64,000 bases of DNA from Candidatus Parcubacteria bacterium (lineage in GTDB: Bacteria > Patescibacteriota > Saccharimonadia > UBA4664 > JBIOIQ01). Made by a program: the position numbers and the translations under genes. The stretch spans positions 388,631 to 452,630 of the forward strand of contig OY970378.1 in NCBI GenBank assembly GCA_963718875.1, given 5' to 3'. Of this stretch, positions 46,777 to 61,552 are shown piece after piece (within the stretch, counting starts at the first letter, position 1; each line of letters starts with the position of its first letter). The notes beneath the pieces were generated by a model, which made no database searches, was not told the DNA's origin, and worked only from the letters and a program-made list of their open reading frames with translations.

Positions 46777-48326
46777 TTTTTGGAGAGTTTGATCCTGGCT
46801 CAGGATTAACGCTGGCGGTGTGCCTAATACATGCAAGTCGAACGGACCAACTATGTTGGAAGAAACAAGTTACAAGATACAAGGATACAAACCAAGTTTG
46901 TTATTTGTTTCTTGCGTCCTTGGACCTTCCAACACAGTTGGTTAGTGGCGGACGGGTGAGTAACACGTTGGTACCTGCCCTCTAGTGGGGAATAACTGGC
47001 CGAAAGGTCGGCTAATACCGCATGTGATCGCAAGATCAAAGCAGCAATGCGCTAGAGGAGGGGCCTGCGTCTGATTAGCTAGTTGGTAAGGTAATGGCTT
47101 ACCAAGGCGACGATCAGTAGCTGGTTCGAGAGGATGACCAGCCACACTGGGACTGAGATACGGCCCAGACTCCTACGGGAGGCAGCAGTAAGGAATCTTC
47201 CACAATGGACGAAAGTCTGATGGAGCAACACCGCGTGCAGGATGACGGCCTTCGGGTTGTAAACTGCTTTTATATGGGAAGATTATGACGGTACCATATG
47301 AATAAGGACCGGCTAACTACGTGCCAGCAGCCGCGGTAATACGTAGGGTCCAAGCGTTATCCGGAATTACTGGGCGTAAAGCGTGTGTAGGCGGGAGTTT
47401 AAGTGCAATGCGAAATCTTGTGGCTCAACCATATAGACTGTATTGCATACTGGACACCTTGAGGATGGCAGAGGCAAGTGGAATTTGTAGTGTAGCAGTG
47501 AAATGCGTAGATATTACAAGGAACACCAATGGCGAAGGCAGCTTGCTGGGCCATATCTGACGCTGAGACACGAAAGCGTGGGGAGCGAACAGGATTAGAT
47601 ACCCTGGTAGTCCACGCCGTAAACGATGCATGCTATTAGTTCGAGGTATCGACCCCTTGGGCCAAGAAGCTAACGCGATAAGCATGCCGCCTGGGGAGTA
47701 CGAGCGCAAGCTTAAAACTCAAAGGAATTGACGGGGACCCGCACAAGCAGTGGATCATGTGGTTTAATTCGACGCTACGCGAAGAACCTTACCGAGGTTT
47801 GACATCCCAGGAATCCGCTAGAAATAGTGGAGTGCCTTCGGGAGCCTGGTGACAGGTGCTGCATGGCCGTCGTCAGCTCGTGTCGTGAGATGTTGGGTTA
47901 AGTCCCGCAACGAGCGCAACCCTTATCGTATGTTGAATTTTTCATGCGAGACTGCCCGGGCCAACCGGGAGGAAGGTGGGGATGACGTCAGGTCAGCATG
48001 GCCCTTACACCTCGGGCCACACACGTGATACAATGGCCGGAACAACGCGTTGCCAAGCCGCAAGGTGGAGCTAATCGCATCAAAACCGGTCTCAGTTCGG
48101 ATTGCAGGCTGCAACTCGCCTGCATGAAGTTGGAATTGCTAGTAAACGTGGGTCAGCATACCACGTTGAATACGTTCCCGGGTCTTGTACACACCGCCCG
48201 TCACGTCATGAAAGTCGGGGGCACCCGAAGTGCTCGTTTTACGAGCCCTAAGGTGAACTCGGTAATTGGGACGAAGTCGTAACAAGGTATCCGTACCGGA
48301 AGGTGCGGATGGATCACCTCCTTTCT
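46777..48326 (+). rRNA. rrs: 16S ribosomal RNA (with an expanded V1/helix-6 region)
   Basis: AGAGTTTGATCCTGGCTCAG near the 5' end, universal 515/1390-type regions, and the 3' end GGATCACCTCCTTTCT. A roughly 100-nt insertion sits between GTCGAACGG and AGTGGCGGACGGGTGAGTAA. Confidence 0.95.
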
Positions 48327-48558
48327 AGGGAGCATTGACGTCGCAAGACGTTCCCTGACCCCGAGTCAGGGCCAGAGTTAATGTAATTGAGCTGTTGCAA
48401 AACGTGCTCTTACAAAAATTTCTGCGATATCCTAGGTCGACCATTCCTAAGTTACGAGTTAAGAGTAGAGAGTTTTGAGTTTACTCATGACTCACCACTC
48501 AAGACTCATGACTATGTGAATGAAGAGTTTACACTGCACAACTTAGGTTTTTAACAAT

Positions 48559-48584
48559 AAAAGCCGCCCAACGGGCGGCTTTTA
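48559..48584 (+). terminator. intrinsic terminator about 230 nt downstream of 16S
   Basis: AAGCCGCCC-AAC-GGGCGGCTT hairpin followed by TTAT/T-rich sequence. Confidence 0.6.
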
Positions 48585-48674
48585 TTGTGCTCAGACAAAT
48601 TATAAAGTCCTATTAATGAATGTGGGCGCCTACGGATGACTGAAGTCATCCGTAGGTTTGCGCGCCCGAGTAAT

Positions 48675-49121
48675 TCAGTGCATGGCGCTGACGAGATCGT
48701 CGTGCCGCTTGAGCAAGGCGTCGAACCACTCCAGATCCTCACCTTCGAGGAAGAAGGCGACGAACTCGCGCCAGCCACACACCATGCTGTCGTCGGTGTC
48801 GATGGGAAGCTCATCCAGCGGGAGCAGATGACGGGTCCTTATTTCAGCAGTTCGCTCTCGGCTGATGGTGGTGGGCCCGAAGAAGCGGTCGGATTCCTCC
48901 GAAGCGAAGGCGAACTCGTGCACCATCTGGGTGAAGAGTGGGGTTTGCTGGCGGAACCAAATCTGCATGAGCATGCGTAGGACTGAGTATGCAGACTCGG
49001 CGGGAAACCTCTTCAGATACCTGGGAAGGTCTGCTCGCAGCTGAGCTCTGACTGCGGCCTGCAGGCAGTCTCGCTCGATCTGGGTCTTGTCGGAAAACTG
49101 CATTTTGGTGGGCTCGGGCAT
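48675..49121 (-). CDS. hypothetical protein in a GC-rich island
   Basis: 148-aa ORF; local GC is about 57 percent against a backbone near 43 percent; a perfect 12-bp stem hairpin (CCTACGGATGAC/GTCATCCGTAGG) lies just downstream. Confidence 0.4.
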   Translation of the reverse strand: MPEPTKMQFSDKTQIERDCLQAAVRAQLRADLPRYLKRFPAESAYSVLRMLMQIWFRQQTPLFTQMVHEFAFASEESDRFFGPTTISRERTAEIRTRHLLPLDELPIDTDDSMVCGWREFVAFFLEGEDLEWFDALLKRHDDLVSAMH

Positions 49122-49252
49122 GACAACCTCTTTTGCTCGTAGGAACTACTCGGACTTGTCGGTAATAATGGCAGATTTGTGCTGAAAAGTCAAATTTTAG
49201 AAAGATTATTTATTCAATGTCGTGTATGATTGATGTGCAATAAGGAAATTAT

Positions 49253-60700: not shown

Positions 60701-61143
60701 TACCCCGGGGATAACAGGCTTATAGCGCCCAAGCGTCCACAGCGACGGCGCTGTTTGGCACCTCGATGTCGGCTCGTCCTATCCTGGGGGGGTAGCCCCT
60801 CCCAAGGGTTTGGCTGTTCGCCAATGAAAAGGGTACGCGAGCTGGGTTCAGAACGTCGTGAGACAGTTCGGTCCCTATCTGGTGTGGGCGTAAGGAAATT
60901 TGAGAGGAGTGACTCCTAGTACGAGAGGACCGGAGTGAACGAACCTCTGGTGTATCGGTTGTTCTGCCAAGGGCATTGCCGAGTAGCTACGTTCGGACGA
61001 GATAAGCGCTGAAAGCATATAAGCGCGAAACTTACCTCAAGATGAGATTTCCCAATCAGACTCCACGAAGACTACGTGGTTGATAGGCACTAGGTGTAAG
61101 CGCAGTAATGCGTTCAGCCGAGGTGTACTAATAAGTCGATCGA
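57768..61143 (+). rRNA. rrl: 23S ribosomal RNA, roughly 3.38 kb, containing at least three insertions relative to typical bacterial 23S
   Basis: Conserved 23S blocks throughout (GGATGCCTTG, the GTAACTTCGGGA...AAACACAG region, CCTAAAGAGTAACGGAGG, GGATAACAGGCT, GACAGTTCGGTCCCTATC, a 3' GTTGATAGGC...GTACTAATAA region). The boundaries are approximate. Confidence 0.9.
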
Positions 61144-61408
61144 TTTTTTTACAACACTTTCTATTGTCATATTGGATGAAAGTTCAAGATGATAGTGAAA
61201 GTGCCGATTTGACTAGCAATTTGTGACGACAACGTCATTTACAACCCAAATTAAAATTTACGATAAGTTTCATTTCACAAAGTTTTTCGAAGTATCATTT
61301 AGGACTACAGCAATAGTTGGCGTTCGAAAATGGAAAGTGAAAATTGTATAAATGAGATTGACTGGGCAAAAGCCCCAGTCTCTATGGGAGAAATTATTCG
61401 CCCAGTGA

Positions 61409-61518
61409 GGCCGGTGCTTTTGGCGAGGAGGATACACCGGTTCCCATCCCGAACACCGAAGTTAAGCTCCTCAGCGGCGATGATACTGCATATAGCGGGA
61501 AAGTAGCACGGTGCCGGA
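61409..61518 (+). rRNA. rrf: 5S ribosomal RNA
   Basis: CCGGTTCCCATCCCGAACACCGAAGTTAAGC core and a pairing 5'/3' helix I; about 110 nt, 265 nt downstream of the 23S. Confidence 0.85.
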
Positions 61519-61524
61519 TTAATC

Positions 61525-61552
61525 AAAAACCATCGCGAACGCGGTGGTTTTT
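61525..61552 (+). terminator. intrinsic terminator of the 23S-5S unit
   Basis: CCATCGCG-AA-CGCGGTGG hairpin followed by TTTTT. Confidence 0.6.

Follow-up and report, generated by a model that had tools for sequence, protein, structure and literature searches.

Layout of the rRNA locus

The stretch of DNA examined here, called the window throughout, comprises 64,000 nucleotides (nt) of Candidatus Parcubacteria bacterium GCA_963718875.1 (contig OY970378.1, 388,631-452,630, forward strand), which GTDB places in the lineage Bacteria; Patescibacteriota; Saccharimonadia; UBA4664; JBIOIQ01. Our subject is its ribosomal RNA (rRNA) locus, where the 16S gene is separated from those for 23S and 5S by a spacer of 9,439 nt (48325-57763) that holds about 13 plausible open reading frames (ORFs) and, on the opposite strand, the genes for tRNA-Ile and tRNA-Ala. 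The rRNA genes were positioned with Rfam and the tRNA genes with ARAGORN:

46777-48324, + strand: 16S rRNA gene, full length (RF00177, 1523.6 bits)
51701-51776, - strand: tRNA-Ala(TGC), found by Rfam and ARAGORN
51862-51938, - strand: tRNA-Ile(GAT), found by Rfam and ARAGORN
57764-61152, + strand: 23S rRNA gene (Rfam), exceeding the bacterial model in length by about 460 nt
61410-61519, + strand: 5S rRNA gene (Rfam), 257 nt past the 23S gene, to which it is still linked

This is not the canonical 16S-tRNA-Ile-tRNA-Ala-23S-5S operon, given the 9.4-kb spacer, the opposite-strand tRNA genes and a terminator past 16S. Five minus-strand blocks interrupt the spacer (48675-49121, 49688-49945, 50040-50948, 51701-51938 and 52056-53561), making at least four strand switches between 16S and 23S. 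ARAGORN found only tRNA-Pro, tRNA-Ala and tRNA-Ile genes in the whole window, so tRNA-Val(TAC) is absent from the 16S-23S interval. Brewer et al. (2020; 10.1101/705046) define 16S and 23S genes as unlinked when they lie more than 1,500 bp apart, and they name Patescibacteria as one of the clades in which clusters have unlinked genes exclusively; Lui et al. (2021; PMC8172020) scored 27 of 34 circularised genomes of the candidate phyla radiation (CPR) as unlinked, their type D comprising genes more than 2,000 bp apart with opposite-strand genes between them. The window falls under both definitions.

An earlier note on this DNA had described a 16S-23S gap of about 9.4 kb, an inverted minus-strand tRNA-Ile(GAT)/tRNA-Ala(TGC) pair, a phosphoribosyltransferase (PRTase), a GT2 glycosyltransferase and membrane proteins within the gap, GC-rich islands, and signals for termination after 16S and for initiation before 23S. 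Every element of that observation is confirmed: Rfam gives the length stated above, ARAGORN places the tRNA pair at 51701-51938 (-), Pfam recognises the protein domains, the islands (~48.6-49.2, 50.0-51.0 and 55.4-57.2 kb) have a GC content of 0.55-0.60 against 0.456 for the window, and the signals lie where they are listed below. Judging from these signals and from related loci, we consider it highly probable that the rRNA genes form independent units and that the layout was inherited rather than created by a recent disruption.

Signals flanking the 16S and 23S-5S genes

The following elements accompany the two rRNA-coding pieces (L numbers denote related loci on metagenomic contigs, treated in the next section).

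46443-46471, + strand: promoter-like site of the 16S unit, TTGACA-17-TAACAT (10/12 matches)
46479-46491, + strand: GAAGTCTTGAAAT, a boxA-like element directly past the 16S promoter-like site
46562-46587, + strand: 5' strand of the 16S processing helix, in the leader (inverted repeat I4, 26 nt, 88% complementary)
48529-48554, + strand: 3' strand of the 16S processing helix, in the trailer (I4; 32x32 duplex scan)
48554-48588, both strands: bidirectional intrinsic terminator, a perfect 16-bp stem (repeat I12) with a GC core, an A-tract and a T-tract
57228-57266, + strand: terminator-like hairpin past the last spacer ORF (repeat I25, z = -5.2)
57290-57319, + strand: promoter-like site of the 23S-5S unit, TTGACC-18-TAAACT with an upstream TG (extended -10), from the promoter scan
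57421-57459, + strand: leader hairpin CTCCGCG/CGCGGAG followed by GAATCTTAACAAA, boxB/boxA-like, near-identical in L179
57732-57757, + strand: 5' strand of the 23S processing helix (I2, 26 nt, 92% complementary), kept in L179 and L062
61207-61232, + strand: 3' strand of the 23S processing helix (I2; 32x32 duplex scan)
61523-61554, + strand: intrinsic terminator past 5S (z = -4.8)

Helices formed between the leader and trailer of an rRNA are the usual substrates of RNase III-type maturation. Folding of long arms did not discriminate among pairings of leaders with trailers, and a scan of 32x32-nt windows was used instead. In that scan the cognate pairs of both genes form near-perfect helices of 26-28 bp, with best energies of -38.0 kcal/mol for 16S and -34.9 kcal/mol for 23S; the cross-combinations (either leader with the other gene's trailer or with the sequence past 5S) all give bulged duplexes of -22 to -27 kcal/mol. 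Comparable 16S-only helices occur in the relatives L101 (-40.6 kcal/mol) and L077 (-37.4 kcal/mol), against -17 to -31 kcal/mol for shuffled trailers. Each helix encloses a single rRNA; the two are separate and non-nested, and RNase III would presumably cleave them.

The terminator starts at the very position at which the 16S trailer strand stops. This hairpin, which the earlier note had recognised as a strong terminator, starts 230 nt past 16S, between that gene and the convergent ORF 48675-49121, and it folds on either strand far better than shuffled sequence (+ strand, -27.1 kcal/mol, z = -6.8; - strand, -26.2 kcal/mol, z = -5.5). A simple terminator scanner did not call it because its T-run pairs in part with the upstream A-run, the same property that makes the hairpin bidirectional. 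Hairpins of this A/T-flanked, bidirectional type lie 153-160 nt past 16S in L062, L119 and L077.

Upstream of 16S, the corresponding position in L101, within a region that is otherwise poorly conserved, is occupied by TTGACA-17-TAAGAT, and in both genomes the motif TTGACA-17-TAnnAT is followed at the same position by the identical 13-mer GAAGTCTTGAAAT, which we take to be boxA-like on the strength of the B. subtilis and E. coli boxA sequences. Ahead of 23S, the promoter-like sequences and the terminator hairpin of the preceding gene, both predicted by the earlier note, are present at 57290-57319 and 57228-57266; L179 has the TTGACC box and a TG-extended -10 at the matching position, and it keeps the hairpin through compensatory changes. 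On the strength of known boxA sequences we presume that GAATCTTAACAAA and its hairpin are an rRNA-leader boxB/boxA, in which case they may serve antitermination. Taken together, promoter and leader elements are conserved in L179, L062 and L101.

We propose that the locus would be expressed as three units. The first would run from the promoter at about 46443-46471 through the boxA-like element and 16S, enclosed by its own 26-28-bp helix, to the bidirectional terminator at 48554-48588, which would also serve the convergent gene downstream. The second would consist of the minus-strand tRNA-Ile and tRNA-Ala genes lying past the GT2 gene, transcribed either together with GT2 or from a weak promoter of their own. 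The third would be 23S-5S, with a promoter at about 57290-57319, the boxB/boxA-like leader, its own helix, the 5S gene and the terminator at 61523-61554. The earlier note's picture of unlinked, separate units thus finds support in the distance, in the opposite-strand genes and in the terminator, promoter and helix that each piece possesses; the separation of the transcripts is a prediction from these.

Another 30-nt inverted repeat, I1 (46046-46075 / 46227-46256, 90% complementary, enclosing 151 nt), lies some 190 nt before the promoter-like site of the 16S unit; it may represent a structured RNA or a small mobile element.

Related loci and the origin of the arrangement

Relatives of the window's GyrB are 82-88% identical to it, and the matches that bear names (85% and ~70% identity) are Candidatus Saccharimonadia, which places the window in Saccharibacteria (TM7), a CPR group; TM7 probe and primer sites had no exact match, and the assignment relies on the named GyrB matches instead. 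The source contig measures 1,189,924 bp, and all window proteins tested are singletons at 90% identity. Synteny with the window, from pheT through gyrBA, is seen in two gyrB contigs of relatives (L057 and L058), whose 10-kb flank stops short of 16S. A scan of metagenome contigs with the 3' end of the window's 16S yielded 80 loci, which we sorted by their blastn matches to its 16S and 23S genes. The majority, at 74-79% 16S identity, are distant and carry conventional linked operons, which serve as a positive control for the method. At 83-91% 16S identity, among loci whose sequence continues for at least ~1 kb past 16S, a 23S gene is near only in L062, where it starts about 2 kb past 16S in the compact order 16S(+), small membrane ORF(-), DUF218-like ORF(+), tRNA-Ala(-), tRNA-Ile(-), 23S(+).

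The inverted Ala/Ile pair follows 16S in L101, L119, L073 and L062 (88-91% 16S identity) and in L106, and in all five a homologue of ORF 49688-49945 lies on the opposite strand between 16S and the inverted tRNA genes. In L077, L093 and L061 (84-86% 16S identity) the tRNA genes are co-oriented with 16S in the canonical Ile-Ala order and are followed by protein genes; L077 and L093 nevertheless carry the small membrane ORF converging on 16S. In the unrelated L078 (16S 74% identical), neither 23S nor tRNA genes occur in the 9.5 kb downstream, making it another unlinked case.

The convergent gene has a published counterpart. Murugkar, Collins and Dewhirst (2020; PMC7651992) described the 16S-23S region of oral Saccharibacteria as containing tRNA-Ala, tRNA-Ile and tRNA-Val with 1-5 protein genes in various orientations, among them, between 16S and the tRNA genes, a phylum-specific '79-aa protein' (aa, amino acids) whose function was given as unknown. 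A gene of this kind converges on 16S in seven related loci, eight with the window, and the eight proteins align at 34-50% identity. We take ORF 49688-49945 to be a divergent member of the '79-aa protein' family because hhalign aligns the eight-member family with 15 aligned published sequences (PMC7651992) over 70 columns (probability 94.6%, E = 6.9e-8) and because the position is the same.

From these loci a history can be proposed. The small membrane-protein gene converging on 16S would be ancestral in the group, and its presence even where the tRNA genes are co-oriented suggests that 16S was cut off long before the inversion. The tRNA pair would then have been inverted in the ancestor of one subclade, and in the window's lineage the interval would have grown from about 2 kb, as in L062, to 9.4 kb by gaining PRTase and GT2, genes of native appearance, together with orphan genes that are GC-rich and evolve fast. 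The series from co-oriented tRNAs through an inverted pair within 2 kb to the 9.4 kb seen here would represent a stepwise dismantling of the rrn operon in which each piece acquired a full set of signals.

Two other explanations were weighed. An assembly artefact, in which 16S and 23S-5S were joined at repeats to unrelated sequence, might be suspected since rRNA and tRNA genes are classical points of breakage and chimerism, and the composition of the spacer is heterogeneous. Mis-assembly is, however, very unlikely, because every type of junction recurs in independent assemblies, those of other samples included. A 5.9-kb Logan contig from ERR12037361, an independent short-read assembly, has an identical GT2 gene and the downstream small ORFs in the same order and sizes, and by arithmetic on gene coordinates it ends near the tRNA-Ile edge and the first 23S bases; L179 joins ORF 53651 through the small-ORF array to 23S; and in L101, L119, L073 and L062 contiguous sequence leads from 16S past the 79-aa gene as far as the inverted tRNAs, L062 continuing into 23S. 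L101 also shares the DUF212 and fn3 genes upstream of 16S, and the cumulative GC skew climbs steadily through the region. We regard an artefact as exceedingly improbable. Alternatively, 16S, the spacer genes and 23S-5S might be co-transcribed as one long operon by read-through aided by antitermination. The three rRNA genes do share a strand, the boxA-like elements could suppress terminators, and Lui et al. (PMC8172020) scored Saccharimonadia as operonic. Yet co-transcription of 16S and 23S is very unlikely, because five minus-strand gene blocks, the perfect bidirectional terminator and four further + strand hairpins with T-runs stand between them; the conserved promoter upstream of 23S and the non-nested helices also speak against a long operon, which we hold to be a very improbable account.

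The reading given by the earlier note, as understood here, was that a canonical rrn operon of this genome, or of its immediate ancestor, had been broken by inversion and by horizontally acquired DNA. Several observations favour it. Ile-Ala is the classical spacer pair, here inverted; the GC content at third codon positions (GC3) is 0.56-0.76 in the island ORFs (48675-49121, 50040-50948 and 55419-57222), whereas 17 long genes from other parts of the window lie at 0.32-0.50, a departure of the sort by which genomic islands are recognised; the island ORFs are orphans; and a lone tRNA-Ala 3' fragment lies beside tRNA-Ala, as integrases leave. Against it, the inverted pair and the convergent 79-aa gene recur in relatives down to ~84-88% 16S identity, and the 79-aa gene also occurs with co-oriented tRNAs, as well as in Saccharibacteria of the mouth (PMC7651992). 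The close relative L179 has the largest island too, though rearranged. Searches of the spacer returned no similarity to integrases, transposases, phages or plasmids, and about half of its genes (PRTase, GT2, ORF 49253-49687, the 79-aa-family ORF and ORF 53651-54082) are native in composition. As the cause of the inversion and unlinking, recent disruption is largely refuted, and we think it quite unlikely. What survives of the earlier interpretation is unlinking, inversion and gene gain; the recent timing does not, since the layout appears inherited. Comparison with related genomes, which the note had suggested as a check, found the inverted pair and the 79-aa gene to be common to related loci, so that a canonical operon disrupted in this genome is contradicted by the convergent gene of seven relatives, co-oriented ones included. 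The tRNA genes do seem to have been inverted, as the more distant L077, L093 and L061 are co-oriented, but not in this genome alone. Foreign DNA is suggested by the atypical composition and by the one tRNA-Ala 3' fragment, against which stand the lack of mobility genes and of phage or plasmid similarity in our searches; the islands may be of foreign origin.

Some points weigh against independent, inherited units. Promoter-like sites are not enriched as a class (22 in the region, against 19.4 +/- 5.5 expected from shuffles), and for that reason the promoter calls rest on conservation in relatives rather than on the scan. Terminator efficiency and promoter activity are predicted, and the proposed order of events (79-aa gene, inversion, expansion) is a parsimony argument from eight loci. 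No 23S gene turned up within 1.4-3.6 kb in L077, L093 and L061. As for the relatives, they are metagenomic contigs, and their kinship is judged from the 79-aa gene, from synteny and from 16S identity (84-91%) alone. Finally, two Saccharimonadia genomes were counted, conservatively, as operonic by Lui et al. (PMC8172020).

Unlinked rRNA genes in CPR bacteria, and tRNA and protein genes in the Saccharibacteria 16S-23S interval, are already published, and the window, with about 13 ORFs in 9.4 kb, is an unusually large case of a known layout. Like the unlinked genes of Brewer et al. and Lui et al., it keeps 23S and 5S together and belongs to a small genome from Patescibacteria, which are rich in such genes; unlike them, its genes are only modestly separated, by 9.4 kb where complete genomes average ~410 kb, and 16S and 23S are still co-oriented neighbours with the old spacer tRNAs between them. 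With the oral Saccharibacteria (PMC7651992) it shares tRNA-Ala(TGC), tRNA-Ile(GAT), proteins in several orientations and the 79-aa protein; it differs from them in the size of its interval (9.4 kb and about 13 ORFs, against 1-5 proteins), in the opposite strand of its tRNA pair and in the other genes that separate its 79-aa gene from the 16S terminator, and from most of them in lacking tRNA-Val in the interval. The tRNA genes of the oral taxa seem to be co-oriented with 16S, because the published reverse primer (PMC7651992, Table 2, as read here) is antisense to tRNA-Ile, and the inverted pair would therefore be a variant of this environmental clade.

Split rrn loci in which 16S lies apart from 23S-5S are classically those of Buchnera, Wolbachia/Rickettsia and Thermus. 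They resemble the window in having stand-alone 16S and 23S-5S units with their own expression signals; they differ in that the units are usually far apart and that Ile and Ala tRNA genes are not known to be retained between them.

The findings do not overturn current knowledge. What they add is evidence, at the level of sequence, for complete expression and processing signals on each piece, a graded comparative series, and a fast-evolving orphan array of winged-helix-like genes beside the 23S promoter. One paper treats Saccharimonadia as operonic and another treats Patescibacteria as unlinked; the window favours separate units. In practical terms, typing by long amplicons spanning 16S, the internal transcribed spacer and 23S, and binning based on operons, should fail in this lineage or give a 12-kb product, and annotations of rRNA copies and operons will be wrong for it wherever they take linkage for granted.

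Genes and GC-rich islands of the interval

The remaining features of the spacer are these.

48675-49121, - strand: GC-rich orphan ORF, 148 aa, GC3 0.76
49253-49687, + strand: ORF, 144 aa, native composition
49688-49945, - strand: small protein with two transmembrane (TM) segments, assigned to the Saccharibacteria '79-aa protein' family by synteny and hhalign
50040-50948, - strand: GC-rich island comprising 50040-50420, an ORF of uncertain coding status, and 50538-50948, an ORF for a membrane protein of 136 aa, GC3 0.58-0.61
51073-51501, + strand: phosphoribosyltransferase-domain protein, 142 aa (PF00156, E = 1.9e-12), GC3 0.37
51629-51656, - strand: orphan tRNA 3' fragment (T-arm and acceptor, CCA end), 45 nt downstream of tRNA-Ala
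52056-53561, - strand: GT2 glycosyltransferase, cellulose-synthase-like, 501 aa (Pfam), directly upstream of the tRNAs on the same strand
53651-54082, + strand: membrane ORF, 143 aa, native composition, with a homologue in L179 (86% identical)
54454-54579, + strand: 41-aa ORF MFENDQKQDQSQAPVISLPDDIDTKEIKLCRIDDPNCESCQ with a strong ribosome-binding site and a C-terminal C-x8-C-x2-C, with a homologue in L179 (1185-1307)
~54609-54624, + strand: weak hairpin with a T-run
54754-55179, + strand: LiaF-TM-like membrane protein, 141 aa (Pfam), a cassette-like gene between flanks conserved in L179
55356-55384, + strand: promoter module TTTACA-N14-TGGTATAAC, preceding the array of small ORFs
55419-55787, 55858-56199, 56268-56609 and 56785-57222, + strand: array of four divergent GC-rich small ORFs with a weak common motif, winged-helix-like
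56627-56665, + strand: strong intrinsic terminator past the third array ORF (17-bp stem and T-run, z = -7.3)

The island ORFs belong to no Pfam, PHROG, PADLOC or NCBIfam family, the scans of ORFs 50040-50420 and 50538-50948 with Pfam, PHROG and PADLOC being equally without a match. ORF 48675-49121 found no homologue but itself among 5.8 billion proteins, no Pfam, PHROG or PADLOC match and no relative in IMG/VR. No integrase or transposase domain was detected in any spacer ORF (Pfam, PHROGs, PADLOC), nor was there a gene for the tyrosine or serine recombinase expected of a tRNA-targeted island, and the islands have no blastn match in phage or plasmid collections. We considered the islands as phage, plasmid or defence DNA and rejected this in the absence of PHROG or PADLOC families and of blastn matches; they were likewise rejected as RNA genes or rRNA remnants, as Rfam at E <= 1 returns only the two tRNAs.

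The orphan fragment at 51629-51656 is identical at 27 of 28 positions to the 3' end of the L101 tRNA-Ala and is unlike the window's own tRNA-Ala. It occurs once in the window, with no second copy bounding any island, and a 161-nt Rfam search reads it weakly as the 3' end of a tmRNA (E = 0.0066). It may be a scar of integration or recombination.

Outside this locus, relatives of the small-ORF array were found only on L179, a 3.6-kb Logan contig reached through the sole credible outside homologue of the island ORFs. L179 is from a close relative: over its final 100 nt it agrees at 95% with the leader and start of the window's 23S. A profile of the array searched against 1.84 billion representative proteins retrieved only the array ORFs themselves, one spurious TPR protein and P0251, a 114-aa protein encoded on L179 that is 45% identical to ORF 55858-56199. 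No array ORF matches Pfam. The AlphaFold (AF2) model of ORF 55858-56199 (pLDDT 82) has the order of secondary structure expected of a winged helix, and its top 50 PDB matches are nearly all winged-helix proteins, none of them significant (best E = 0.17, TM score 0.4-0.5). Members of the family in L179 differ in number and order and are only 31-45% identical to those of the window, against 86% for the neighbouring gene. Modules of the TTTACA-N14-TGGTATAAC type precede small ORFs in L179 as well (~1371-1399 and ~2326-2354).

Window 54356-55385 and L179 1072-2356 have conserved non-coding flanks in common but not the gene between them, which is the LiaF-TM-like gene in the window and a 143-aa member of the small-ORF family in L179. 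The window flanks hold an imperfect 32-nt inverted repeat, I3 (54358-54389 / 55336-55367), and the pattern looks like the replacement of one cassette by another. L179 has, at 2090-2205 and upstream of a small-ORF promoter module, two perfect hairpins with the common palindromic core CAGGTGTAACCTG, which does not occur in the window; in L179 they may be an operator or a recombination site.

It is tempting to see the 16S-23S interval of this Saccharimonadia clade as a hotspot of gene-cassette swapping. The conserved flanks with different contents fit such exchange, and the orphan tRNA-Ala 3' end would then be the scar of a past site-specific integration nearby; even so, we consider the idea unlikely. 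The fast-evolving winged-helix-like family kept directly upstream of the 23S promoter could act on that adjacent rRNA promoter; alternatively, it could be cargo of an unrecognised exchange mechanism that works without an integrase. The relatives L101, L119 and L073 also have high GC downstream of 16S (~0.53-0.56), and high-GC Saccharimonadia are conceivable as a source of the islands; our searches found no island-ORF homologues to back such an origin.

As to the other spacer genes, GT2 homologues that bear organism names are mostly from Patescibacteria. A search for GT2 synteny found no relative among species-representative genomes, the closest homologues (~50% identical) lying in unrelated contexts without rRNA or tRNA genes. 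The 41-aa ORF 54454-54579 also has a TATAAT box and a downstream hairpin with a T-run, and its C-terminal half weakly matches the Cys-containing C-terminal tail of the ribonucleotide reductase alpha subunit (E = 0.014).

The 23S gene, 3,389 nt long, owes its length to extra sequence at ~58059-58209, 59611-59783, 60220-60451 and 60636-60659, which in a pairwise alignment map near E. coli positions ~291, ~1717-1769, ~2213 and ~2397. The 232-nt insert has a closed and very stable fold (-102 kcal/mol, z = -11). No group I or group II intron model of Rfam reached threshold in 23S, and the inserts look like the rRNA insertions known from CPR.

Beyond the rRNA genes, purD (62632-63891, + strand) has relatives in species-representative genomes of many phyla at 36-55% identity, which are uninformative for synteny. 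The best of them (50-55%) come from the PVC-group, Omnitrophota and other metagenome-assembled genomes outside CPR, the sole Saccharibacteria match being 46% identical. Genes of purine biosynthesis are unusual in Saccharibacteria, and purD may have been acquired horizontally. Outside the rRNA region, the only other block of raised GC spans 20008-21204 and contains ORFs 20008-20649 and 20731-21204, with a GC content of 0.54 at 20401-21000.

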